Positions 3,082-22,409 of a DNA stretch of 22,409 nucleotides are shown piece after piece. The DNA is taken from contig OZ287076.1 in the NCBI GenBank assembly GCA_965645245.1, positions 2,294,001-2,316,409 on the forward strand. The letters are read 5' to 3'. How positions within the stretch are numbered: the stretch's first letter is position 1; each line of letters opens with the position of its first letter. The position numbers were made by a program, and so were the translations under genes. The notes beneath the pieces were generated by a model. The model saw only the letters and a list, made by a program, of their open reading frames with translations, did no database searches and was not told the DNA's origin. This DNA is from Massalongia carnosa. Its lineage: Eukaryota.

Positions 3082-4068
3082 ATGGCAGCAGAATCCAAAA
3101 CGATGAGGACAATCCTCGAGACATCAGAGGATTGGGAGACGTGGTATGATGAATTGAAAACGATATCAGCTAACGAGTTTTGGAATATGGCAGATCCAGA
3201 CCAACCTACTGTTCTTCCTGCGGCAGCTCCCTACAAGCCGGTAGTAGCAGACATAGTACAAGGAGAGACACTATACACAAACCTCTCAGCCGCAAATCAG
3301 CGAATGTTCGATAATGCAAGAAAACATTACGAGTCGGATCAGAAAGACTATATAAGACAAGAAACCTCGTTGACGACGATAAGAAAACACATAGTAGAAA
3401 CAGTTCCGATCACAAACCGAACGAGCCTGAAAGCGAGTATGTCAGTAAAGGAGTGTCTCATTATCTTACGAAACCTTATGGCACCTCCGACGGGACATTC
3501 CATGGCGTTGGCGAAGGAGAAATATGATAAGTTGCTTAGGATGAAGGCGAAACCACTAGACTGGTTGGATAAGTGGGAGAAGGTAGTAGCCAAGGCCCGA
3601 CAACACGATTTGTCGGAGTTCAAGCACGGAATATGGCTTGGAAATATGTCGTCGTGGATGAAACCACACGCACCAGAACTATCCTATGCACTTCGATCCA
3701 GAGGCAACGACGCCGCAAGAAATGACATATCGCAATATCCAGAAGTCCTAAGAGAAATCCGAGAATACTTGAGGGATGGAGTGAAGCAGACGGTCCGGGG
3801 AGCCGCGTTCCAGACGTTAGTGGACGACGAAGACGAAGATGGCCTACTAGAAGAAGTAGCCAATACAGCCACTAAGAGAAAGAGGGCAAATAAAACTGGA
3901 CAATCTCACCATGGAGGGAAAAGGCACGATAAGATATGCCCTGCGTGTGAAAGACCAGCCCATGATCTCGAGAACTGTTGGTTTATATTCCCAGAAGGGA
4001 AACCAGATGACTACACTCTAGGGAAAAGGAAAACTAAAGAGGACAATTTGTCTGATTCATCAAGTTGA
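3082..4068 (+). CDS. gag: Copia Gag with CCHC zinc knuckle
   Basis: 328-aa ORF after the PBS, containing CPACERPAHDLENC (C-x2-C-x4-H-x4-C). Confidence 0.85.
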   Translation: MAAESKTMRTILETSEDWETWYDELKTISANEFWNMADPDQPTVLPAAAPYKPVVADIVQGETLYTNLSAANQRMFDNARKHYESDQKDYIRQETSLTTIRKHIVETVPITNRTSLKASMSVKECLIILRNLMAPPTGHSMALAKEKYDKLLRMKAKPLDWLDKWEKVVAKARQHDLSEFKHGIWLGNMSSWMKPHAPELSYALRSRGNDAARNDISQYPEVLREIREYLRDGVKQTVRGAAFQTLVDDEDEDGLLEEVANTATKRKRANKTGQSHHGGKRHDKICPACERPAHDLENCWFIFPEGKPDDYTLGKRKTKEDNLSDSSS

Positions 4069-4114
4069 CAAACTTCCTGCATTTCAAAGGTCAGATTCAT
4101 CTAGTAAGGCCGCA

Positions 4115-6326
4115 TTGCTAATAACTCCAATACCTCGTCGTCGTTTAGGAAAACCTAGATCCTCCTCAAAGGGAGATGCCTTCATCTGGCATTGTCGTAT
4201 GGGACATCATGGACCAATAAGCCTTCACAAACTAGGAGAGAACTCATTAGGTGTTACACTATTAGGGCCATTGACCACTCAGTGTGAGGCGTGTATTCTG
4301 GCAAAGATGTATAGACAAATATCACGTCGGCCAGGAAATAGAAAAGTGACGAAGCCAATCCAGGAACTGCACATAGATTGGACGGATTTCGATAAGGCCA
4401 TGGATGGTTTTATACGAACAATGTTTATCACAGACAAATATACTGGATTACTCATACCTTATTTCATGTCAACATACGGAGAGGAGTTAGAAACCCTCAA
4501 GATTCTCAAAGACCTAATGGCTTGGTGCAAGCAACGGAACCTACTGATAGAAAGGATACGGTGATATCTGGAGTTGAATAGAAAGCGTGCCAACAAGTGG
4601 TTGTCATCGGTAGGGATAGAATTCGAACCTTCCGTTCCTAGAACTGCAGCACAAAATGGTGTAGCGGAACGTTCAGGGGGTGTGATAGTGACGAAGGCGA
4701 GGGCGATGTCAATAGGAGCTAAGTTACCATCAAATCTCTGGAAGGAGGTAGATGCGTCAACGTATTTACATAATAGGACTCCTAGAGAGGCTCAGTCCTG
4801 GAAATCACCGTTCGAAACATTCTACAAAACCAAACCTCAATTGGCCCATTTAAAGGCCTATGGCTGCAGAGCATATGCGATGACTGAGGACGCTCAACTT
4901 CATAAGAACAGACGACAGAAACTCCAACCCCCTGCATATATAGGACACCTGGTAGGATACCGATCGACGAATATCTTTAGAGTGTGGATACCAGAAAGAC
5001 ATGGTGTCATCTCCACACGAGACGTGATACTCGATGAGTCCAGATTCTACGAAGGACAGTTACCCGAAGAAGGAACGTCTAAAGTAGAGAGAGAGACCAT
5101 CATAAATAGGATCGAGTTGCCAGTGGCTGAAGCAATAAATGAAGGCATCTTAGAGGAAGATGTGGAGATACTAGAGTATCATAATGATGAAGCAGAGGAT
5201 ATATCTGACGTCGATAGGCTTGATAGACCAGACAAATTGATCGAGGACCTACGCCAAGCAGAGGAACAAGAACGTGGATTACCAACACCACCACCAGATG
5301 AGGATGACGAATTAGCCATGGCACTTCATGCTCGGTTAGAAATTGAAGATATACATGAGGCAAGCTGCTCTCAATGTGACTTCGACGATAATATCTATAT
5401 TAGTAAAGAAGCACCACGCATCCAAACATCAGAACTCGGGGCATTTGCCGCTGGTCGGTTGTTCAGTAAGTTCCATAAGTTGAATCTACCCCCACCTCCC
5501 AAAACCATACGTGACCTGGAGGGTCACATGTTCGAGTCTCACTTCATCGATGCCATCAGAGAACATCTCGGTGAGCATGAGAAGATGGAGACGTTTGAAC
5601 TAGTCGAAACAAGCATACCATAAGACATCAAGTGCTGGACTGCATGTGGGTTTTCACCTACAAGACAGACAGTGATGGCTATTTGGTAAAATGCAAAGCT
5701 AGATTAGTAGTATGTGGGAATCAACAAGAGGTTGGGGAACTACCAACACGAGCGACCACTTTGGCCAGCTCAGCATTCAGGTCCATGATGGCTTTAGTTG
5801 CGAAGTATGATCTAGAAACTAGACAACTCGATGCAGTAAATGCATTTTTCAACTGTCCGCTGGACGAGGTGGTATACATACATATTCCACCATATTATCC
5901 ATTCACAGGTAGGCATTCGCATTCGCCGTCGAGCGGGCGGGCACTGAAAAGAGGACGACTCTATCAGAAGACCAAACAGCGGCGACCCCTGGTGAAATGA
6001 TGACTTCTGTAAAGGAAGGCCTTCACACCCAAGAGAAAACGCGGCCAGTCTAGGTGAGAAACCAATCTGGAGAACTAGTCGACAAGGACTGATCACCCTT
6101 GAATCGATATAGTCCCGGACAGTAAAGCTCAAAGGTGGAAGAGGTTAAATCAGAGATGTGGTCTAAAACAAAAATATGTGTTAAGACTGAGAAAAGCACT
6201 CTATGGCCTGGACGGTCACCATATCTATGGCAGAATCATCTGTCAAAAACATTTCAATCCATGAAATTTAGAGCCATACCTCAAGAATCATGTATAATGA
6301 TGAGAGGCGGAATCCTAGCATTATGA
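4115..6326 (+). pseudogene. pol: Copia pol remnant: GAG-pre-integrase, rve integrase, SH3 region, partial RT
   Basis: Motifs: WHCRMGH...CEAC; ELHIDW; QNGVAER; HLKAYGCRAY...STRDVILDE; WVFTYK...KARLVVCGNQQ...QLDAVNAFFN; LRLRKALYGL (from 6181). Lesions: stop at 4562 where the second catalytic Asp is expected, stop plus frameshift near 5623, an insertion at ~5908-6170, and a frameshift near 6210. Confidence 0.9.
5991..6097 (+). ncRNA. Candidate box C/D (K-turn) RNA inside a foreign insertion in the Copia RT
   Basis: GGTGA stem (5991-5995), A, box C ATGATGA (5997-6003) ... box D CTGA (6089-6092), TCACC (6093-6097); 107 nt in total. No guide target identified. Confidence 0.3.
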
Positions 6327-7256
6327 ATGGGAAAATGGGCCTTAGGGTCAGGATGGACTTTAGAGATTTTTTTCGGGGAAACGATCGGGAACGATCTTAT
6401 CAGGGCAGCGCTCTACCTCTTCTTGTCGTGCGAGCATCGTGGTGGGAGATATAAGGCGCCGAAGGGGGTAGTGTTCGAGGTGGGATTACCGAAAGCGGCA
6501 ATCGTGGGGTGGCAGAATTCTCCCCGCTTTCCGAATCGGGGTTTTCGGGACACGACGTCAGAGAGGTACCCAGGCAACCAGAGTTAACAGATATAAAGAA
6601 GGTTCGTATATAGGATATAGTCATAAGAAGACGCACTATCAATATCCGTAGTTTCTATACCTATAGATGATTTTTTCGCGGGAGTTACACCAAGATATGT
6701 GGTTACTAGAAGAGGGCTCGATACGCTTTGCCAAATCGAGGTTTTCGGGACATCTCCTGTCGGTGCTTTATTTACATTGGCCCGACCTTCTCTTATAGAT
6801 AATCTATCTATCCTAATACTGTACTGGCCCGGATAATGCAGCAATACCTTCGAAGCAGCGTGGCGGGCGGCGCAGATAATATACTGATAACGAGCTAGTT
6901 CGTGTCAATCTCGTTATATTGCTACTAAGTATGTTTGGGCTATTGCTCACAGCCCCCGGCCTCGAGAGGGGGACTCGATAAGGGCCTTGCTGTCTACTAA
7001 TGTAAGACCCTCTCGCAGGCCTTGGGCTGTGAACAGACTCCCTCTATCTAAGCGACAGAAGAACTGGAGTGGGTGGGTGGGAAAGAAAACGTTGCAAACA
7101 GTGCTATCAAAATGCTATGCTTTTTGATTGTCTTGAGATGTGAGATGATGAGGGATACCGTCTGGGACCTCCTCTTTATATATCTTCTTCCTATTCTCCT
7201 TGTCCTACTCTACCATCCCAGTATGCCCCATCAACGCGGCCCATAGCAAGGCATAC
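6327..7256 (-). mobile_element. Probable decayed LTR-element 5' end (LTR part, PBS-like site, leader and degraded ORF)
   Basis: The minus strand reads TATATAAAG, a pyrimidine-rich tract, ...GGTCTTACA (LTR-like end at 7001), then T-TAGTAGACAGC (a TGG-type PBS if a G>A change is assumed), flanked by a long inverted repeat. The upstream boundary is uncertain. Confidence 0.4.
6944..7035. repeat. Imperfect 27/28-bp inverted repeat
   Basis: TGCTCACAGCCCCCGGCCT-CGAGAGGG (6944-6970) versus the reverse complement of 7008-7035, TGTTCACAGCCCAAGGCCTGCGAGAGGG. Confidence 0.85.
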
Positions 7257-7653: not shown

Positions 7654-8331
7654 TTGCCCAGCCCATGTCACAGGCTTTGCCTACAAAGCACGCCGGAAGA
7701 GGCAGAAGTTATAGGACGTATCAAGCAGATACAAATCGACGAGCAAGCCGGCGACGGCGAAAAGGAAGAATATGATGCCGAAGTTGCAGCGCGAGTAAAG
7801 GCAATGGCGACTGGCGACTCGGAAGCTATGAACACCCCGAATGTACTACACGGCAGCGGACGGGCGAGGATTGAGACAAAGTCACATGATTCTGATTACA
7901 TCCTCCAGGAGTTTGAGAATTTTGATTTGGGCGTACAACAAGAGCTTAGCAAAGCACGGGAACCTAATAGATCTACAATGAAGTTGCAGAGATCACAGCA
8001 GAATGCGCCCCGCAGCAATGACAACAGCAATAGCATAACCCCTCAGTCTGCATCAAGTGGAAAACAAAGCCGACGGAGTAAGAGCGCGTCTTTTCCGGCG
8101 CAGAAAAACACCCTCTTATCATGGGTAAGGCCAGGCTTAGACACTACTGCCAAGCATCCCCCGGCGACTCGATGCCTACCCCCCAGCTTTCCTTCGCTTT
8201 TGCCTTTGCCTCAGCCACTATACGGGCGTGAGCAAGCGGAGGCACTGCCTACGACCCCCCCTCGGCGGCTGACCCAATCCCTGGCGAGGTGCCCACGCCA
8301 GCCAGACCTAGGGTATTACATGACAGCTTAG
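7654..8331 (+). pseudogene. Low-complexity N-terminal part of the large uncharacterised gene, separated from it by a frameshift
   Basis: A C7 run at 8255-8261 shifts the frame. The paralogous copy has C8 (21027-21034), which reads in frame into EVPTPARP. The true start may lie further upstream. Confidence 0.6.
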
Positions 8332-11300
8332 ATCCTACGAATACTGATTCTCCTCCACCAGAGCGGACGGCTTTACAGCTAGCCAAGCAGCTCCGGAAAT
8401 TTCAGGGCTGTACACACGAGGAACATGCAGAGGCAGAACGCAAGCACCAGGCACATCACCAACGCCCCGATGTACATTCAGAGTGCTTCTCTATTCCGGG
8501 GAGTACTTCGATGCTTCGGGGGAGCCATGCCGGAGGAAGGCCACTGCCGGATGTCCTCAGTAACAGCAAGCTCATGAGGGCTACCGATATCCTGGGCGCC
8601 GACTGCCAGGCTGCGTTCGAGGGCACTAGTGTACAAGCAGCTTTGGGAGATGCCGAGGCAAGGGAGCAAGAACTCCCCCGTAACCTCTGTCTCAACCAGC
8701 ACTATATAGCCAGCCGTAAGAGCCGCCGTCCTAGGGTTGCGTTCGATATTGACAGCACATGTTGTTTCCCAACCAGCCTTGGATTCGCACGCCGAGGTGT
8801 CGACTGGTTTCCTAGAGTCCACCCTTTCCTCAACCTTACGGCGGACATACATTTTGGCCTGAAGGTCCGCGGATACACGGCCAATGGCAGGCCGTCTGAG
8901 AGATATGCTCCACTGCACAAGGTTCCGCACTACTGCTTTGGTAGCGTGATTGGAATGAGCGAGCTTCTTGTATTCGTCTTCTTTCCTGCGCTTCATGAAG
9001 AGAGTGCCTATGAGCACTCTACCTACCTGAGCAAGCATGACCAGCAGCTCTGGACGGATGCTATTGTACTTCCTTCAGTCACCAAGGTCGTTGGATCTTC
9101 CAATATCCTGCTACACTATCCTGCGTCTTCTCGTGTCGCCAGCCTGGACGCTACTGCTGTCTCTGCCGAAGGCCTCGCACGGAAAGAGTCTGCGCGTGAG
9201 CAGCTTCTCAAGCACGCCATACAGCCACAGTACCTTGACCTACTCTGGACGGCCATCCAGGAGACCATCGAGGAGAATCCAGGCTTCCATCGATTCCAAG
9301 GTGCGACGCTCTTCACACACGCCAAGAACACCAAGCTCGACTTCAGCAGGCCTGGCTTAACCGCTGCATACAATATGTGGGAACGGCGCTGGTCGGAGGC
9401 AACCGATCCGGATTTCTACAATAAGGATCGTACGTATGTCGACCTGGCAAAGCAGACCACATCTGAGGATTCTGCATTGCCGTATGACCAGATCCCCGAC
9501 GATCACGAGGCTGAAACGTTCCTGTGGAGGAAGTGCTGCCTTGACGCATACTCTAGGACCCGCACAACTCTTAATCCAGATGGTAGCAAAGCAAAAGGGA
9601 ACCCAAAGCGTACCGTATATCCTTGGGCCACTATGCGAGATACAGTAGGCCAGACATTCCTCGCTGCACCGCAGGGAGTTGAATGCCGAGATGGACTGAT
9701 TTATTCCCAGTTCTATGCGCTGATCAAGACGCCTTTTGACTCGACGAAGGTGTACGTCTTTGACAACGACTCGGTAGAAAACCTCGCACTAGATCCCGAA
9801 TATGTAAGGTCTCTGCAACAAGAGGATGGTGCCGTTACCTTCTCCAAGGGCGTGTGCGAATTTGCCTACCTGCATGGTAAGAAGCGGGCCTATGCCAATC
9901 TCCTCGACAACCGCTGGAGATCGTACGGCACGAGAGAAGAGCATCGGATTTCTCTGACCATGATGGAGGAGATCTATGAGCAATGGTGGCAATGGGACCT
10001 CTACGATGCCGACGATATCGACGATAGCCGGTCTCCGTTGCCGTATTATATTATCCCCACGCGTGACCTTCTCGCCTTCCTCTATGCCCAGATCAATAAG
10101 TACCGCTTTCTCTTCGAGCACACCCTGGCCAACACAGCGAAGACCTATTCCTTACCTGAGACGATCGTGATGGTCGTTGCACTGCGAGCACTCCGGTTCT
10201 GCTACGGCAGTAATTTACTCGAGCGAGAATCGCTCCTTTTCAAGGATCACTGGCAGCAGATGCGTGGCCAGAAGGTCCTCGTCAAAGAGGGTCTCGGGAT
10301 GAAGAAGACCATCGAGCGCTGCGGAATTGGCTGGTTCCTCCCCAACTTCAACTGGGCGACATGGAGGCTAGCAGCACCGCATGGTGAGAACATCCTGGTA
10401 GGAAACATGCTCATGCACGAGGAATACAAGCGGAGGTGGAGGGCAGTCAAAGATCTCCGGGACGTCTACGTCCGTTTCAACCAGGCAAAGTCCTGGTATG
10501 ATAAGTATAATGTGCTGGGCAACGGTAGGCTAAGGATGGCGTGGCTAAAATATCTTCACGTGCTAAACCTCGAGCAATTTGACGCTGATGTATGGAAGGC
10601 CATGCTCAGGACTAATAAACGGAGCCATGAGCTTAGACCCGAGGCTATACAGTCGGCAGCCAAGACACGGTTTTGCTATCATGATATGAAGAGGATGTTC
10701 TCGGGGAACGGAGCAGGGTGCCCACCACATCTCGTGACGGGCAACAGGATGCGGTTTGAGAAGGTTATAGACTTGCTAGACTTCCTGTTCTTATGGGACG
10801 AGCAAGAGCGGCCGGGGTGGGGCGACAAGCCATATCGGGTGATATTGAACAAGACGTTTGAGCTGATTGAGCAGCGGCTTGGATATCGACAGGCCGATAA
10901 GTGGCGGGATGAATTCCTCCATCTGGTTCGACTGACGCATTGGATTCTCCCGTATCCTTCCACGAGCGCCTTGATTACATCAACCAAGACTAGTCAGAGC
11001 CGGGATCTTTCAGGGCGTATGATGTGGTTCTCGGTCGTGTATGCAGACCCATTATATGTAGAGCTCCCGTTGCAGCGGCCTCCTTCAACGCTGTCTACTA
11101 TCATCTGGCATGCCCGAACGCGGATACTTGGGGAGGATGACGAGCGGCAGGCATGGAGCACAGCGCAGCTACTGGCAGGCGTCGAAGCGCAGTGTGTGGA
11201 GACGAGTGGGGGTGAGGAACTCTGGGTGGCCGGGAAGAAGAGCATAGGGCTCAAGGGGTTTGCGCCCCTCTGGGAGCGGGGTCAACCACCGCGGCTAAAG

Positions 11301-11621
11301 ATACTTGAACAAGTGCGAAAGAAGAGTCTGGAGGAGCTAGAGGAGCTGATGGCGGGACTGAGCGTTGAGTATGCTGCTGATGACGGAGAAGATGACGTTG
11401 GGCCTGGGGATGACGAAAGGGGTGAGTTGGGTGGAAGTACTGACAATGAGGCGGCTGATGTTATCAGCCGGACCGCTGCGATTGTAGCAGGAAGGAATAT
11501 CTTCGCCGCATTTGCCAGGAGGAGTAACGGGGATGGAGACAGAGATGATGAAAGCTATAGGGCGCTCGGTACCGCTGGCACAGACAGCGGTAGTATGTTC
11601 AGTCCAGGTGGAAGCGGATAG
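8289..11621 (+). CDS. Large uncharacterised fungal protein (1,110-aa open frame; C-terminal part of a ~1,320-aa gene)
   Basis: 3.3-kb uninterrupted ORF with globular composition and an acidic tail. A diverged partial copy lies at 20941-21425. No family confidently recognised. Confidence 0.8.
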   Translation: MPTPARPRVLHDSLDPTNTDSPPPERTALQLAKQLRKFQGCTHEEHAEAERKHQAHHQRPDVHSECFSIPGSTSMLRGSHAGGRPLPDVLSNSKLMRATDILGADCQAAFEGTSVQAALGDAEAREQELPRNLCLNQHYIASRKSRRPRVAFDIDSTCCFPTSLGFARRGVDWFPRVHPFLNLTADIHFGLKVRGYTANGRPSERYAPLHKVPHYCFGSVIGMSELLVFVFFPALHEESAYEHSTYLSKHDQQLWTDAIVLPSVTKVVGSSNILLHYPASSRVASLDATAVSAEGLARKESAREQLLKHAIQPQYLDLLWTAIQETIEENPGFHRFQGATLFTHAKNTKLDFSRPGLTAAYNMWERRWSEATDPDFYNKDRTYVDLAKQTTSEDSALPYDQIPDDHEAETFLWRKCCLDAYSRTRTTLNPDGSKAKGNPKRTVYPWATMRDTVGQTFLAAPQGVECRDGLIYSQFYALIKTPFDSTKVYVFDNDSVENLALDPEYVRSLQQEDGAVTFSKGVCEFAYLHGKKRAYANLLDNRWRSYGTREEHRISLTMMEEIYEQWWQWDLYDADDIDDSRSPLPYYIIPTRDLLAFLYAQINKYRFLFEHTLANTAKTYSLPETIVMVVALRALRFCYGSNLLERESLLFKDHWQQMRGQKVLVKEGLGMKKTIERCGIGWFLPNFNWATWRLAAPHGENILVGNMLMHEEYKRRWRAVKDLRDVYVRFNQAKSWYDKYNVLGNGRLRMAWLKYLHVLNLEQFDADVWKAMLRTNKRSHELRPEAIQSAAKTRFCYHDMKRMFSGNGAGCPPHLVTGNRMRFEKVIDLLDFLFLWDEQERPGWGDKPYRVILNKTFELIEQRLGYRQADKWRDEFLHLVRLTHWILPYPSTSALITSTKTSQSRDLSGRMMWFSVVYADPLYVELPLQRPPSTLSTIIWHARTRILGEDDERQAWSTAQLLAGVEAQCVETSGGEELWVAGKKSIGLKGFAPLWERGQPPRLKILEQVRKKSLEELEELMAGLSVEYAADDGEDDVGPGDDERGELGGSTDNEAADVISRTAAIVAGRNIFAAFARRSNGDGDRDDESYRALGTAGTDSGSMFSPGGSG

Positions 11622-12503: not shown

Positions 12504-13797
12504 ATGAGCACATTACCCATTAGACATTTGAGCGAGTGGCGATCATGTGTCGCAAATGTCAACATGCCATTTAACCGGCTCAGGTGCAGTCTCATTTCCA
12601 AGACCCGCAGCATCGCATGAAAGGCAAGGAAGCCGTACCCATTGCGGAGACGGCGCAATCATGGCCTAATTTGATCCAGTACCCCATAGAGTTAAACCTT
12701 ATCAATCAAGTAGATAGGAGGATTCACGGACTGGCAATGCATTTAGTGGATTGTTTTATTACCTTCAACCGGAACGATGTCAGTATATTTATTGCAGTGA
12801 AAAGAAAATGAAGACGCATTGCAAACAGAAGCACGATTGGTCGATGCAGTCACGAAAAGGCAAACCCAGCAAGATAAGATCGACCTCGACTCGTGGAGCA
12901 GGGATTGATGGTATAGGTGACCCGATATCATAAAGGGTAGGTGGGGAAAGGGATGTCAAGGTGATTCATGGATATTTGCGCGGCGAGATCGGGGAGTCGT
13001 TGATGTATTACACATAGTTGGTATTGCCGTTTCAGCCTCAATTGGAAGTCACGTTTTAGGAGAGAGATCAGGTGTTAGCGTTCATGTGGCCATCCAACCC
13101 GGATGGCAAACGGTGGACGTCGCAGCGACTGCGGACGGTGTTGTAAGACGAGAGTCGAATTGGCATGGAGGTGTCATTGGGCATTCAGGAATATGGGGAG
13201 ATTGTCATTGACATCAGTCGAAAGTACATGCGAGACGGTTTGTCATTTCATGTCGACACGGAAAACGAGGAGACGGCCGATGATAGGTTAAACTATATCG
13301 CGGACTTGCAGGTGGGGCATGGATGGCAGGTGGCGGGCATGATATATGCACGAGGCATTGTGGAAGCCAATAGGGAGGTGGCCAGCAAGCTTCAGCGGTT
13401 TCGTCAAAGCAGTCAGGAATGGCATGGATTTTTAGGATTTGCATCGGTCATGACGACGCACATGTCGTCGGAATATGAATTAAAACGCCGGACGGTATGG
13501 GAAGAAGAGAATGAAGAGATTCGGATGCATTGATGGAAACGATTGCGTGGAGTAGACGTTTAACAACAGTTGGAGCGATTGAAGGGGGCCGGCAGTTGGT
13601 TCCGCAAGGTGCAACGGGTCACGATTGAGGCGATCATGGCGGGCGAAAGCGCCGTGATCGCGGCGATAGCCATCGGGGGCGGCAAAAGCATGATATTTAT
13701 GTTGCCGGCGTCGTGCGGGCACGGAGGGGTGAGTGTAGTAGTGTTGCCGTTGATCGCATTACGGCAAGATATGCGGCGACGGTGCGAGAGCATTGGT
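12504..13797 (+). pseudogene. TLH-type RecQ helicase remnant A (DUF3505-like N-terminus, internal deletion, recombinase-like C-terminal motif, helicase motifs I/Ia)
   Basis: MSTLPIRHLSEWR/IMCRKCQHAI*PAQVQSHF; C...HCKQKH; IADLQVGHGWQVAGMIYARG; AIGGGKSMIFMLPA...VVVLPLIALRQDM. Many stops and frameshifts. Confidence 0.8.
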
Positions 13798-14991
13798 AGA
13801 CAAGCACGAGACAACAAACTGGTTAAAGAAAGCAGTGTGACGGGTGCATTTCCAAGAGAGGGATCTTGCCGAGATCTATGCTTGCAGTCGTATGCCTGGC
13901 CGGGAAGATGACGAGCTGCGGAGGATGGTTGCTGCGATGAAACGGTTGTTTTTTGGCCGCTGTATTGATAGCCTGAAGAGCATGCCATTGATGACACGCT
14001 TACTCCTGGCCAGTCCCCATCATGACGATGCTCACAGCCGGCCGTTTGGCCTATTGCAGGAGAAGGCAAGCATAGACCGAAATCTGATTTACTGGACGCG
14101 GTTCTTTTGCTACTGCCTGAATGTCCTCCAATTAGCCGATGCAGAGCTGTTTAAGAAATATGGTTTCTATTTTACAGCAGCACAGAGAGGGAGTCTTGAA
14201 AGGTTGTGGGAGCTTTTAAAAGATAAAGATTACTCTAAAGGAGTCCTGGAAGAGGAGTTGCTGCAAGTGTCAGCTACTTTCTGGATGCAGCGTCTTGATA
14301 GGGATCCGTTTCTTAGTCCGCTTTGGCATTTTGTTGGCGTTCTGGGAACTGATGGTAAATCTAGGCACTTCAGACCAGCATATCTGTTCACAAATATGCT
14401 TGCAGGGCTAGTATATGTTGGGAGAGCATTGCTAGGGGAGTGAGCTATCCCTGCTGCAGAGAGAGCCGGTATAAAGGATTTGGGAGGGCGAATTGGCCAG
14501 GTGCGGAACACTTGGCTATGCAAAGCTACTTACTCTCCGATGGGCTATATTCTCAGTTTATTGTTGTACGGCCGGAAGATTGCTCAGGAAAGTAGAAGCC
14601 GGCTTATGGTATCTTGGAGCAAGCAGGGTGAGTTGATTTATTTCATGAGAAAGCCCATTGCTTTGGACGACATCCGCAGCATGGTAGCAGAAATGACGGC
14701 TGATGCAGAAGACCTGTTGTGGAACTCTCTAATGTTTAAAGAGGGTGAGGATATCCGATTCACTATCCCATTAGCTATTATTGAGGACGACTTCACCCAG
14801 ACTCAACGGGGGAAATCCTTCATCCACAGCAATGGCCTTGCTGGAAAAAAAGTGGAAATGCTAGAAGATCTTGTTAATAGACGGCGAAGGCGGGAATTAC
14901 TAGACAACAATGGCCAGTGGAAGTGGAAATAGGTCGAGAAATACAATAAGGCAGTTAAGAAGTTTGATCTTGCTACTAGTGCAACTCACAT
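13798..14991 (+). pseudogene. TLH-type remnant B (central region of a different paralogue), cut by a Gypsy LTR
   Basis: ETTNWLKKAV*RVHF...SRPF...YWTRFFCY...SPLWHF...YSPMGYILSL aligns by eye with PWLRRTG...TRAF...YWKQFLTY...SSLLSF...TPMGEILG of the full copy. Stops at 13838, 14441 and 14930. It ends at LLLVQLT, just before the expected GQPxR motif. Confidence 0.75.
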
Positions 14992-15305
14992 TGAAGAGGG
15001 GTAGTCGTGGGTGGTGCGTAGGGTGATGACCTCTAGAGGGGCGATCGAAAACAGACGTGGAACGAACGTGAAAACACAAACAGAACTCGGAGTAGACTCT
15101 GACCTGATCGAACTCTGGACTAGACACTAAAAGAAAACTCTCTTGATTGTTGAAAGGAAAAAGAATGTGTGTCCGCACTGTCTATCTGAACTCCCCTATC
15201 TATAAGGAGACGGGACTGCCTCGGCCCCGGAAAAACTCCCCCTCCACACTGCCTCCACCCCTGCTCACCACCTCCACCCCTACTCACCACCTCCACCCCA
15301 CCACA
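14992..15305 (-). repeat. Gypsy 3' LTR (~314 bp) containing a 19-bp tandem repeat
   Basis: The minus strand begins TGTGGTGGGGT and ends ACCCCTCTTCA (8/11 inverted match). CCTCCACCCCTRCTCACCA occurs 2.5 times at 15252-15299. The left edge coincides with the break in TLH remnant B. Confidence 0.7.
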
Positions 15306-16480: not shown

Positions 16481-19400
16481 ATGAGCGCCCGTTTTGTCTA
16501 TCTGCCGGAATGACGGACGCTGGTGTGCGAAGAGTGCGGCTTTGGCCTCCGTCCCGGTCGCGGCGTTTGGGTTCGGCATCTGAGGCAAGCACCGCATTGC
16601 TTGAAGGGCCCCGAGCTCCGGGCCCAGGTCGAGCTGTTCGAGAGCTACGACCTCTGCGCGCCGGAGCCGGAGCTCGCGCAGCTGCCGGCCCACGCGATCC
16701 CCGGATTACGGCTCCTCGACGGTTCCAGTGCTTGACCTGCGCGGCTGGTCTTACCCAAAGCCTCCAAGCTATCGAACGGCACGTGTCAAAAGCCCACCAG
16801 CTCAAGCCTGCATGGCATAAGAAGAACCCCCTCTGGCGGTCGTGCAAACTCAAGACTTTCTTTGCAGAGAATCGCTTAGTTCGGTATTTTGTGGTAGAGG
16901 ATGAGGGAAGAGAAGAGGCGCCAGGGAGCTCCGGATACAGGAGCGCGGATAGCTTGGGTTTAGGGGACGAAGACTTCTTTAAGCTGCTCGACCAGGACGC
17001 CGCTATTGCAGAGGAGGATGCTAAGGCAGAGGCCAACATCGTTCATGGCTTCGATGGCCACCGATCCGCTGTGGTGCCGTGGCTGAGACGGACGGGCATC
17101 GAGGAGCACACGCGGGGCTTAAAGAAGGACGAGATGCACGCCTCTTTTGCAGTACCGAAGGCTGCCGAGAGCGAGCCCGAGCTGTTCCTGATGCTAGAGG
17201 TGATGGACGAGATCTTTCTAGAGGCGCACAGCTGGTGCTTCGATGGCCCCGACTGCATGCTGACCTGGCCACGGCAGCTGGCGTTGAGCCGCTTCCATAC
17301 TGCCCCTGCCCCAGGGCAGAAGACGCGCGCGTTCGACCCGAAGAAGGAGCCTAATACGCTCAAGACCAACTTCGGCTACTGGAAGCAGTTCTTGACCTAC
17401 AGCTACCGGGTGGCCTACCGGGGCGACCACTTCACCGCGGCCGACAGCGACCACTTCACCGCGGCCGACAGCGACCAGCGGACCCCCGAGAGCCATATCC
17501 AGCTCACGTGTGCTCAGGAGAATGCGTGGGAAGTGGCTTTCCAAAGTGCCGTCGAGCAAGACGGGCCTGCGCTGAGAAAGGCCATGTCGGTGCTCTCAAT
17601 GGCGCTGATCTGCCACGAATTTGGAGGCAATCGGTACAGCTCCTCACTGCTCAGCTTCTACGCCATGCTCAGCGTCAAGCCACACATCAAGACTTGGAAG
17701 TAGCCGGGCAATTACAATAGCTGCTTGTCTGGCGTAATCTGGATTGTGCAGCTAATCATCTTCCACGCCAGCGCCTGTCTGGAGAAGGCGGAGCTAGGTG
17801 ATACACTCGATCGCATTGAGCAGTATTGCGGGCAGTTCTTGAAGCAGGACACCGAGACTCCTATGGGCGAGATCCTCGGCTGACGCTTGCTGCTGTTTAC
17901 TGTCTCGAAGGCGGTTGTTGGGCCGCACCAAGCACAGTGGGATGTGGACGAGAAGGTCCTGACCTACCGAGACGTTGATTTGCATATAGATCACGTGCCG
18001 CGGCTCTTACTCTCCGAGTTCCAGCAAGCCCAGCACCTACTCTACGACGAGCTGATGTTCGGGACCCAGAACCTTCCGCGGATGCGTGCTTGGGCATTAA
18101 AGGACAACTTAGACGCCGATGCCTTTGGCTGGTTCTTTGGCCAGCACCGGGTGAACTTTGAGCTGGTAAAGCCACTGGCGAGGTCTTTGCTAACCGTTAT
18201 CCAAGACTCGAAGCCGTTGCGGGACTCGTTCCTGGATGCCAACGCGGATGGCGCTAAGGTCTGGCGGGAGAAAGCGATTGAACGGTATGAGGCCGTGGCT
18301 AACGAGTTCCTGAAAAGGCTCTTAGTCTTGATCCACATGGGCTCTGGCCAGCCTCTGCGCGAGAGTGAACTGTTCTCCGTCACCTGGCGTAACACCCAGC
18401 GGCAGCGAAGCGTCTACCTCAAGCACGGGCTAGTCATGCTGCACACCACATACCACTAAGGTCAGCAGCAGACGGGCAAGTTTAAGGATAATATCAGGTT
18501 CTTGCCTGCACCTATTGGAGACCTCTTGCTGGACTACTTGGTAGTTGTAGTCCCGCTCCTCCAGGTCTTCCTCCGCCGGTCTGCCCCGCATGCCCTTCTC
18601 TCTCCGTACTTGTGGTGGCAAGACGGCAAGGTCTGGGCTGACAACCGGCTCACGCGGTGCATGGAGCAGGCGTGTAGTCGGGCCAGCGTCCCCCGGCTAC
18701 ACATTGCCAACTGGCGGCAGATGACGGTCAATATCGTCAAAACTAAGTTTGCAGCTGACGTTGGGTGCTTTGAGGTTGACGACGGGGCTAACGACGAGGA
18801 TGCCGAAGAGATCGAGGCGGACATTCGGATTATGACCAAGCAGCGGAACCATAGTACGCGGACTGTCAACCTGGCATATGCAAACCAACACAATGCTAAC
18901 TTTGGGAACGTGTGGGATGGCCTTATCCGCCGGAATCTGCGTGCTTCAACTCTGTGGAAGGACTAGTGGGGGCTTGACCAGCTGCTTGGACCTGCTGGGA
19001 AGAGGAAGCGGGATGGTGAAGACATTGGTGGTCCGCAAATGCTCAAGAAGATCGCCATGGGGGTCTACCGGCCACGGAAGAAGTGGTCAGCTGCGGCTCC
19101 GCTGAACAGTGCAAGAAAGCTGTACCTAGATAACACGCTGAAGTGGAAGTCAGCAGCGCAGGAGCGGGCTATGACTACTATCATGTCATGGCCTGAGCAG
19201 GTGGTAGTTATCATGGCTACTGGCGAAGGGAAGAGCCTGCTGTTCATGCTGCCTTGCATCCTCCCGGACGCTGGGGTGACAATCTTGGTCTTGCCACTCG
19301 TATCTTTACGAGGAGATCTCCTCCGCCGAGTTGGAGAATTGGGGATCGATTACTTGGTGTGGTCGCTTAGCGAGCAAAGAGATGCGCCTTTGGTGTTTGT

Positions 19401-20826
19401 CACAGTTGAAGCAGCATGTACGGAACAGTTTCGGACTTACGCCCACAAGCTCGCGGCTACGCAAGACCTCGGGCGCATTGTATTGGACGGGGCTCACTTG
19501 ACTATCACAGCGTCCGACTATCGCGAGGCTATGGTTGACCTCGCCCTGATCCGCAACGTCCGTACGCAGTTTTTTTACTTAACAGCTACTCTACCACCGA
19601 CAATACAAGCTAGATTTGAAGAGCAGAACAACTTGGTGAACCCCAAGGTGATTCGAGCATCGACGAACCGGCGAAATCTGTTCTATATAGTACAGCAGGC
19701 CACTGGGCGAGGGAGTCTGCTCGAAGAGGGCGCGCGGAGGGTAAGGGAGGCGTGGGAGAATAGCCAGCTCTTGGATCGGGCTCGAGATAAGATCATCTTA
19801 TACGTTCGGACAAAGGAAGATGCTGCTACGCTGGCTGAGCTACTCTGCTGCTCCCAGTACACAGCTGATATAGGCACGGCTGAGCAGAAGGAGGAGGTGC
19901 TGAGAATGTGGCCTGCCTCCTCGGACCAGCCGTACATGATGGCCACGTCTGCACTAAGCGCTGGCTTCGACTATGCCTACGTTCGCTTAGTTTTGCATAT
20001 CAAGGAGCCGTCGTCTTTAGTAGACTTCGCCCTTGAGTCTGGTCGGGCCGGGCGGAATAGAAAGGAGGCGTACTCGCTAGTCCTCCTCTCACCTACATGG
20101 AAGCCGCAAGCGGCTGAGAGTACCGCGGTCGAGAGAAGAGCGCTGCACCGCTATCTCCTCGGGCAGGACTGCCGCCGGGCATGCTTGAGTGAGCACCTCG
20201 ACTCGGAGCCGTATTGGCGACAGTGTCAGGCTGACGAGGACGTTGTATGCGACGTATGCAGCGCCGGCCCAGCTCTCGCTCCGTCTTCCGCTCCGTCTCG
20301 CGAGCCGGCTCTTCAGTATACTGGCAGTGCAGCTATCCAGGAGAAGCGACGTCGAGCCGAGCTCGAGTTAAGCCGGTACCAGGAGGACCTGCTCGCAGTT
20401 CAAGGCACGTGTCTGCTCTGCCAGGCATCCGACGATGCCTGGGACCACGCCTTCCCTACGTGCTGGCGTCGATTCTAGTTCTTTGAGGCTCGCAATCGTG
20501 TTAAGAAAGCGAAGCAAGGATGGCGGTGGATTACTCCGTACCACGCATGCTACTGGTGCTATAATTCCCAGGCCGTCTGTCCGCGAGCGGACCCAAAGAG
20601 TAACTGCCAGAGCTGCCTCTACGCAGAAATTGTCATGCCGCTCTGCTATGGCATCGTCCACGGAGGCGGGGCCGAGCAGTGGCTAGAAGAGCGGTTTCAG
20701 CGGACGTTTACAGACGTCGATGAATTTCTTAAGTGGTGTGGTCAGGCAGCTAGCTTCGGCGGGGGTAAGGCAATCTGGGGAGTCTGTGTAGCTGCGGCTG
20801 CCCTAATTGAATTTGAGTTATACTAG
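16481..20826 (+). pseudogene. TLH1: Full-length telomere-linked RecQ helicase (TLH-like) pseudogene, ~1,450 codons, oriented toward the telomere
   Basis: ATG at 16481. DUF3505-like CEEC...H and CLTC...HVSKAH. RecQ motifs MATGEGKS, LPLVSL, VLDGAH, LTATLP, ATSALSAGFD, ESGRAGR; Zn motif CRR...C...CDVC; C-terminal Cys clusters. One frameshift (~16722) and six in-frame stops (16511, 17701, 17881, 18457, 18964, 20476). Confidence 0.92.
17425..17477 (+). repeat. In-frame 24-bp perfect tandem duplication (DHFTAADS x2)
   Basis: GACCACTTCACCGCGGCCGACAGC at 17425 and 17449, plus a partial third copy GACCA. Confidence 0.95.
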
Positions 20827-21425: not shown

Positions 21426-22241
21426 TACGCCGCCGGATGGGTTGGGTATTACCCAACACAAAACCCAACCCAATAGGTTATCGTTGGGTTACCCAACAGA
21501 AAAAATCTGCGAGTGTAAATGATGACTACTAGCATGACCACCACAAAACACGAATGCAACAGTTATTATATAAGTTAGGATTTTTAATTATATGTAGATT
21601 TATTTTAATGACTATCACAAAGTGAATTGTAGATTTTTGATGAAACATTTATTTCGTTGACGTCGAACTACCAAAAAGATTTTTACAAATTCATATGCTA
21701 TCTTTTATCTTCTATCGAAATATGTCGCTCATTCATCGCTTTCTATTCAAAACTCGTAAAGAAAGTCTCTCGCTATCTCATTCTTTACTCTCTATCTTCT
21801 TGTCGCCCCCACCCTCCCCCCCCCTACTCTACCTCATCCTCCACCATACCCTTCTCCTCCTCCTACTCCTCAACCTTATCTACCACACCCTCCTCTTTTA
21901 AACCCTCCTCTATCACATTCTTCTCCATAATACCCTCCTCCCGCACACCATCCTCTATCATACCCTCCATTACCTCCTCGCTTGATGGAAGCCTAGCCCT
22001 TCTTGTACGCGTTACAATCCTTTTATTCTTATCGCGTTGCTCGGAAATGGAGTTTCTGTTATTGTAAGTTCGTTTCTTACCTTTCTGTAGAATAATTAGC
22101 TCTAGAAGACACGAAAGTAAGTGACTTGATGCTTATATCTCGCGCTAAGACCTGCTCAACCTGGGATAACCCAATTTGCGTTAAATAGTCCTCGTCATTG
22201 TCATCGTCTTCCTCTTAACTAATGTAGGCCTTCTGAAAAGC
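21426..22241 (-). mobile_element. Probable hAT-like DNA transposon end with a degraded acidic coding tail, truncated by the telomere
   Basis: Abrupt start at TACGCCGCCGG, then clustered GTTGGGT/ACCCAAC repeats (21441, 21451, 21463, 21483, 21491), an AT-rich spacer, and a minus-strand D/E-rich broken frame (AYIS*EEDDDNDEDY). No transposase catalytic domain is visible. Confidence 0.45.
21806..21980. repeat. C/T-rich low-complexity tract (degenerate ~15-bp GAGGAGGGT-containing units on the minus strand)
   Basis: Recurrent ACCCTCC(TC) motifs with strong strand skew. Confidence 0.7.
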
Positions 22242-22409
22242 TTAGGGTTAGGGTTAGGGTTAGGGTTAGGGTTAGGGTTAGGGTTAGGGTTAGGGTTAGG
22301 GTTAGGGTTAGGGTTAGGGTTAGGGTTAGGGTTAGGGTTAGGGTTAGGGTTAGGGTTAGGGTTAGGGTTAGGGTTAGGGTTAGGGTTAGGGTTAGGGTTA
22401 GGGTTAGGG
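22242..22409 (+). repeat. Telomere, (TTAGGG)28
   Basis: 168 bp of perfect TTAGGG running to the end of the sequence. Confidence 0.99.

Follow-up and report, generated by a model that had tools for sequence, protein, structure and literature searches.

A tyrosine-recombinase-like module ahead of the helicase core in the telomere-linked RecQ helicase family

Background

Telomere-linked RecQ helicases (TLHs) are described, in the accessible part of a preprint (bioRxiv 10.1101/2024.02.27.582403), as proteins with zinc fingers, RecQ motifs and a conserved 'TLH domain' of about 250 residues that lies upstream of the helicase, the last of which was defined in a 2009 paper cited there. The same part of the preprint gives the function of TLHs, and likewise the role of the conserved upstream block, as undetermined, reports TLHs also in fission yeast, a smut fungus and a choanoflagellate, and contains no mention of a recombinase. 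In this study, we analyzed a TLH gene on the forward strand of a 22,409-nucleotide stretch of the Massalongia carnosa genome (assembly GCA_965645245.1, contig OZ287076.1, positions 2,294,001 to 2,316,409), which is referred to as the window and which carries the gene at positions 16481-20823. Inspection of the window sequence (hereafter, the original prediction) had suggested that this gene encodes a fusion of zinc fingers, a tyrosine recombinase (YR) and a RecQ helicase. Our results support the view that TLH joins zinc fingers, a tyrosine-recombinase-like part and a RecQ helicase in one protein.

The window gene resembles the described fungal TLHs in its zinc fingers, the conserved block ahead of the helicase, the RecQ motifs and the adjacency to a telomere, as far as these are given in the accessible part of the preprint; whereas the 'TLH domain' is presented there as a conserved stretch some 250 residues long, we read the corresponding sequence here as part of a YR-fold module of about 600 residues. 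Our literature search found no paper tying TLH to a tyrosine recombinase, although subscription journals and InterPro superfamily assignments lay outside the search and prior notice is possible, and it found no description of a fusion of a tyrosine recombinase with a RecQ helicase. In the accessible part of PMC8381367, TLH appears just in a figure legend, with no recombinase, and those of PMC4522978, PMC10799480 and PMC4164029 hold nothing relevant to such a link.

Results

Domain layout of the TLH protein

The closest intact homologue of the window gene is a protein of 1439 residues from public metagenome data (P0002), to which the window gene is 88% identical over residues 82-1439 in frame 1 (tblastn). 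The parts of the gene all lie on the plus strand. The first zinc finger (TLH residues 1-81; 16481-16723, frame 2) matches Pfam OrsD, a C2H2-type zinc-finger family (E = 1.2e-6), and is followed in frame 1 by a second C2H2-like zinc finger with a linker (16723-17175), as judged from tblastn and the translation. The middle region is a two-domain YR-like module, which consists of an N-terminal, core-binding-like helical domain (17176-17931) and a YR-like catalytic domain of 356 codons (17932-18999). The RecQ-type superfamily 2 helicase core (19153-20058) matches Pfam DEAD (E = 4.5e-10) and Helicase_C (E = 2.2e-6), and a Cys/His-rich C-terminal region extends from 20200 to the gene end at 20823. 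When the profile of the whole family alignment was compared with the Protein Data Bank (PDB), RecQ matches to the C-terminal half dominated, with E-values from 3e-45 to 5e-36 for RecQ5, BLM and RecQ1 structures and from 3e-45 to 1e-31 when bacterial RecQ and WRN structures are included. The middle region alone retrieved 2109 relatives at E <= 0.001 from a library of 1.84 billion representative proteins, but no Pfam family covers it in the window protein, in 34 distant relatives or in 13 domain-only sequences (the last at E <= 10), and on this sequence evidence the middle 600 or so residues are a large, conserved and unnamed block.

The C-terminal region contains many invariant Cys and one invariant His among 40 homologues and matched no Pfam family. 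It is probably an undescribed zinc-binding module.

Fold of the middle region

Residues 232-839 of P0002 were modeled with AlphaFold2 from an alignment of 40 sequences. The predicted local distance difference test (pLDDT) value of the model was 82.4, and merely 31-42 in the stretch with the candidate catalytic His and Tyr. In the model, the catalytic domain has helices around a three-stranded sheet, which is the arrangement of YR catalytic domains, and the structural match to the YR fold that the original prediction had proposed to look for was found in a structure search (VIA). The scores were 11.2 for XerA (4a8e; 3.3 A, 168 residues), 9.7 for IntI (254 residues aligned), 9.3 for XerH (272 residues aligned), 9.1 for the XerD C-terminal domain, 8.9 for Cre (272 residues aligned), 7.9 for bacterial topoisomerase IB, 7.3 for lambda Int, 6.2-6.4 for Ndc10 and 5.2 for Flp. 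The whole-protein alignments to IntI, XerH, Cre, lambda Int, the Tn1549 integrase and Flp begin at model residues 1-11 and span 232-272 residues, showing a core-binding domain ahead of the catalytic domain. Foldseek placed Xer and Cre chains at ranks 1-5 in one search and 1-11 in the other, with probabilities of up to 0.99-1.00. At 356 residues, the TLH catalytic domain is about twice as long as the bacterial one (about 180); it has helical insertions as well as an acidic loop between the second candidate catalytic Arg (Arg II) and the second His (His II). We consider it nearly certain that the middle region has the YR fold, and very likely that the TLH module and YRs share common descent.

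Conservation of the candidate catalytic residues

Conservation was examined in 173 of 268 relatives, which cover the catalytic region and were aligned to the family hidden Markov model; the other 95 are fragments lacking this region and were excluded. The 173 homologues are 24-100% identical to P0002 in the catalytic region. Positions in this section are numbered within the modeled region of 608 residues (region numbering + 231 = P0002 numbering). The five candidate residues (R, K, R, H and Y), chosen in the original prediction from a single sequence without conservation data, proved to be near-invariant: R389 is kept in 169 of the 173 homologues (conservation rank 5 of 608), K422 in 169 (rank 8), R508 in 171 (rank 3), H553 in 167 (rank 11) and Y562 in 171 (rank 4), and all five occur together in 159. 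E392, the Glu of the box I motif RxxEL, is likewise kept in 169 (rank 6). By our own arithmetic, five positions drawn at random have a probability of about 7e-10 of all ranking among the first 11 of 608.

The segment between the first Arg (Arg I) and the candidate Lys had been described as beta-rich, and strands are indeed present in both models at residues 407-410, 413-420 (beta2) and 431-436 (beta3). K422 directly follows beta2 and lies about nine residues ahead of beta3. The profile alignments are divided over which residue is equivalent to the hairpin Lys: one register selects K431 (kept in 123 of 173) and the other K422, which is by far the better conserved of the two. In the fetched sequence of Cre, K201 directly follows a hydrophobic stretch, and its position relative to the hairpin is presumably similar to that of K422.

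In the window, every string and coordinate of the original prediction was reproduced by the frame-1 translation. The candidate Arg I (GQPLRESEL; R618 of P0002) is encoded at 18358-18360 within LIHMGSGQPLRESELFSV. A TAA stop codon occupies 18457-18459 (HTTYH*GQQQ), at the start of the beta2-beta3 hairpin loop; P0002 reads YHKGQQQ here (K651), confirming the suggestion that the stop replaces a Lys. The candidate Arg II (NWRQ; R737) is at 18715-18717 within HIANWRQ, and the candidate His II (QRNHS; H782) and nucleophile Tyr (NLAYAN; Y791) are at 18850-18852 and 18877-18879, respectively, within KQRNHSTRTVNLAY. The same H-x8-Y spacing is seen in XerD (H270/Y279), in lambda Int (H333/Y342) and, with Trp in place of His, in Cre (W315/Y324), for which the residue types were checked on fetched sequences. 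As expected of a YR nucleophile, the Tyr at 18877 is located nine residues after the His and near the C-terminus of the domain.

Profile comparison with known recombinases

A search for XerD homologues, made to obtain a diverse YR profile, returned relatives that were all at least 88% identical and were not used. The template alignment was instead composed of 13 recombinases from the E. coli K-12 chromosome, collected with the Pfam model, and lambda Int. Comparison of the TLH catalytic profile with this alignment using hhalign gave a score of 35.6 (P = 4e-4, probability 35%, 129 columns). The control scores were 15.1 for the reversed TLH profile, 15.5 for the reversed recombinases, at most 16.3 for 30 column shuffles and 14.8 for the N-terminal half. 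In the alignment, R389 falls on the Arg within XerD GLRVSEL, R508 on that within HVLRH, H553 on the LLGH His and Y562 on the Tyr; we take these residues, whose types were verified, to be R148, R247, H270 and Y279, respectively. In the weak match of the N-terminal half, XerD 110-128 is aligned with region residues 259-276, a register that agrees with the independent structural alignment since XerD 111 there corresponds to model residue 15, which is region residue 259. The profile-profile alignment weakly suggests that R, R, H and Y correspond to the catalytic residues of XerD.

The window copy is a pseudogene at a chromosome end

The 3' end of the window is a perfect (TTAGGG)28 array at 22242-22409 on the plus strand (28 copies with 100% matches in TRF). 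A pattern search of the window for TTAGGG gave 27 matches against 0.08 expected, all inside this terminal array, and no interstitial telomere repeats were found in the window. Because 28 perfect repeats close it, the window represents a chromosome end. The TLH gene (4.3 kb) points toward the telomere, and the array begins 1.4 kb past the gene end, in agreement with the telomere linkage that had been proposed for the helicase gene.

Residues 1-81 of P0002 match the window with 68% identity in frame +2 (tblastn), which indicates a frameshift from frame 2 to frame 1 near 16723. The original prediction had anticipated a frameshift; it exists, but it lies in the zinc-finger part and outside the region that had been indicated. 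The gene also contains six in-frame stops, one at codon 11 (about 16511) in the first zinc finger, two in the core-binding-like domain (17701 and 17881), two in the catalytic domain (18457 and 18964) and one in the C-terminal region (20476). The core-binding-like part further carries a 24-bp tandem duplication at 17423-17477, and the DEAH sequence of the helicase Walker B motif in P0002 is DGAH in the window copy. The window gene is therefore a dead TLH pseudogene, broken by a single frameshift and by six in-frame stops; one stop falls exactly on the codon of the candidate catalytic Lys, and the copy is inactive whatever the role of the module.

At the stops at 17701, 17881, 18457, 18964, 20476 and codon 11, the intact homologue reads E, W, K, L, E and W, respectively. 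The GC content is 54-59% all along the gene. These stops and the steady GC content do not resemble the C-to-T changes that repeat-induced point mutation typically leaves in fungi.

Family members and their surroundings

The named relatives all belong to Pezizomycotina (Lachnellula, Pseudogymnoascus, Hortaea, Cladosporium, Geoglossum and others), and one of the homologues (P0113, 46% identical) is annotated as a 'telomere-associated recQ-like helicase'. Among 28 related metagenome loci, nine include 2 kb or more of sequence downstream of the match. L017 and L029, two of the nine, end in same-strand TTAGGG repeats located 2.0 and 2.9 kb past the gene, and the other seven have none in the downstream DNA present, indicating that telomere adjacency is recurrent and not universal.

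Nucleotide similarity between the window and the 28 loci is limited to the open reading frame and about 100 bp downstream. This holds even for the loci with 90-91% identity, L016 (with 4.8 kb of upstream sequence) and L017 (2 kb downstream). The confinement of the similarity to the reading frame does not prove mobility, nor does it exclude it. On either side of the TLH gene, no convincing terminal repeats, direct or inverted, were found. A compact, single-frame, multicopy unit would be in keeping with a mobile or gene-converting element.

A pair of TLH-like copies is present on each of two metagenome contigs, in tandem on L033 (374-3829 and 7447-8744) and inverted on L041 (1-1666 reversed and 3995-5343), showing that the family also occurs as local duplications. 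The window contains a second, far more divergent TLH-like relic with stops at 13597-14737 on the plus strand. It begins with a DEAD-box N-terminal fragment (GGGKS Walker A; Pfam DEAD, E = 1e-8; 39% identical to P0002 880-946), directly followed by a stretch that is 21% identical to P0002 194-518, the core-binding-like part. The domain order is reversed relative to a normal TLH, and the relic probably derives, by rearrangement, from another member of the family.

Other features of the window

Remnants of a Copia-type long terminal repeat retrotransposon are present at 3082-7000 (plus strand; about 46% GC), including a retroviral SH3-like integrase domain (4574-5623; E = 1.3e-17) and part of an RVT_2 reverse transcriptase (5632-6000; E = 3.5e-9). 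An open frame of 1110 residues at 8289-11621 (plus strand) matches no Pfam family; its sole sequence match in the PDB is marginal (E = 0.005, a formin-binding protein FF-type domain). On the minus strand, a frame of 366 residues at 1096-2196 has an HNH_2 endonuclease domain (E = 2.9e-9). One C/T-rich low-complexity tract is found upstream of the TLH gene at 15239-15299 (19-bp unit, 2.5 copies), and another at 21780-21970, between gene and telomere (30-bp unit, 2.8 copies).

Discussion

The best explanation of these results is that the window gene is a dead member of a TLH family whose proteins consist of zinc fingers, a two-domain YR-fold module, a RecQ core and a Cys-rich tail, and that in intact members the module would cut and rejoin DNA. 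We give this explanation as a whole a probability of roughly 0.7. For catalytic activity of the module in intact relatives taken by itself, which we judge by analogy with known YRs, the odds seem somewhat better than even. The module appears to correspond, at least partly, to the 'TLH domain' of the literature.

Several observations weigh against the YR interpretation. The order of the residues and the H-x8-Y spacing of the YR motif were as originally predicted, but the reading of HIANWR as an HxxR box did not hold: the canonical His is absent, the position three residues before Arg II being Ala in 81 and Ser in 63 of the 173 homologues, and the His five residues before Arg II is kept in just 107. 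The HxxR His position is variable also in topoisomerase IB and protelomerases. Pfam searches found no YR family in the read-through window protein (E <= 1; just DEAD and Helicase_C), none in 34 distant homologues (E <= 0.01), and none in 13 domain-only sequences even at E <= 10, at which neither DUF3435 nor PF00589 was matched. A phmmer search of the middle region against the PDB gave no relevant match, and a domain-only profile (A3) gave a single chance match there and hhalign probabilities below 1% against XerD alone and against lambda Int alone. When Cre and full-length XerD were added to the template alignment, the hhalign score fell to 21.8 (P = 0.036, probability 1.4%), with the register of R, R, H and Y unchanged. 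The best Foldseek E-values were 0.02 and 0.0087, and neither search had a match at E <= 0.001; these scores were probably lowered because the domain is doubled in length by the helical insertions and the acidic loop.

Such results are what would be expected if the resemblance were due to chance and the region had a TLH-specific fold unrelated to recombinases, since the sequence-based searches were all negative or weak, the Foldseek E-values never fell below 0.001, and an R...K...R...H-x8-Y pattern alone carries little information. The conservation, the fold and the profile controls take the pattern beyond chance, and we regard coincidence as highly improbable. A module of recombinase origin might have become a catalytically inert DNA-binding domain that anchors the helicase to subtelomeric or telomeric DNA, like Ndc10 of the yeast kinetochore complex CBF3. 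Ndc10 was among the structural matches; it is not known to retain R-K-R-H-Y, in contrast to TLH, in which these residues are nearly invariant, and an inert module seems unlikely to us. Slightly less likely still is a type IB topoisomerase-like swivel, which would relieve the torsion produced by the attached RecQ motor and would be neither a site-specific recombinase nor a transposase. Bacterial topoisomerase IB was also among the structural matches, although it scores below the Xer, Cre and integrase chains, and the two-domain layout, in which 254-272 residues align with IntI, XerH and Cre, is that of recombinases.

Judged from the model structure and the active-site pattern, the TLH module would be a member of the YR / topoisomerase IB fold superfamily that lacks the HxxR His and a match to a curated model. 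Compared with XerA, XerH, XerD, Cre and IntI, it has no significant sequence similarity (no match to PF00589), a catalytic domain of about twice the length, Ala or Ser in place of the HxxR His, and fusion to zinc fingers and a RecQ helicase. We know of no recombination site for TLH. Crypton, DIRS/Ngaro, Starship 'Captain' (DUF3435) and the protelomerases TelK and ResT belong in principle to the same superfamily; no Pfam match to DUF3435 was obtained, as noted above. The ResT-TelK_cat cluster is a weak language-model neighbor of the TLH region (0.83), and protelomerases were not among the best 50 matches of either VIA search, which does not exclude them. Helitron RepHel, a fusion of an HUH nuclease with a Pif1-like helicase, is similar in logic alone: a tyrosine DNA-cleaving domain and a helicase are joined in one polypeptide encoded by a multicopy unit, whereas the nuclease fold is unrelated to that of YRs. 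HUH nucleases form a 5'-phosphotyrosine link and act with a 5'-to-3' helicase, in contrast to the 3' link of YRs and the 3'-to-5' movement of RecQ, and the polarity of TLH would therefore mirror that of Helitron. Our analysis yielded no evidence for rolling-circle transposition.

The Tyr of Xer, Cre, integrases and topoisomerase IB is a nucleophile whose attack on a phosphodiester yields a 3'-phosphotyrosyl link. By the same chemistry, the conserved Tyr of intact TLHs would attack a DNA phosphodiester to give a 3'-phosphotyrosyl intermediate, and the two Arg, the Lys and the His would stabilize the transition state. This cut-and-rejoin activity would cooperate with the 3'-to-5' RecQ motor on chromosome-end DNA, where the motor might, speculatively, act on the cleaved strand. 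Most likely, the activity would serve to transfer or duplicate the TLH-bearing unit from one chromosome end to another, or to stimulate recombination of subtelomeric and telomeric DNA. The roles named in the original prediction, the integrase-helicase of a mobile element or a telomere-resolving recombinase, are speculation. A bolder and doubtful possibility is that TLHs are the enzymes of an unrecognized eukaryotic DNA element or chromosome-end maintenance system, in which the YR would become joined covalently to a 3' end and the fused 3'-to-5' RecQ would peel off the strand, as the mirror image of the HUH-helicase of Helitron; such a single-frame unit might place copies of itself on chromosome ends, or restore ends in a telomerase-independent way.

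Conclusions

The interest of these results lies in the family and not in the window locus, because the window copy is a pseudogene. TLH genes are located at the chromosome ends of many fungi. If the TLH module is a recombinase, the conserved block upstream of the helicase would gain a concrete activity, the cleavage of DNA via a phosphotyrosine link, and TLHs, beyond plain helicases, may be DNA-rearranging enzymes or selfish chromosome-end elements.

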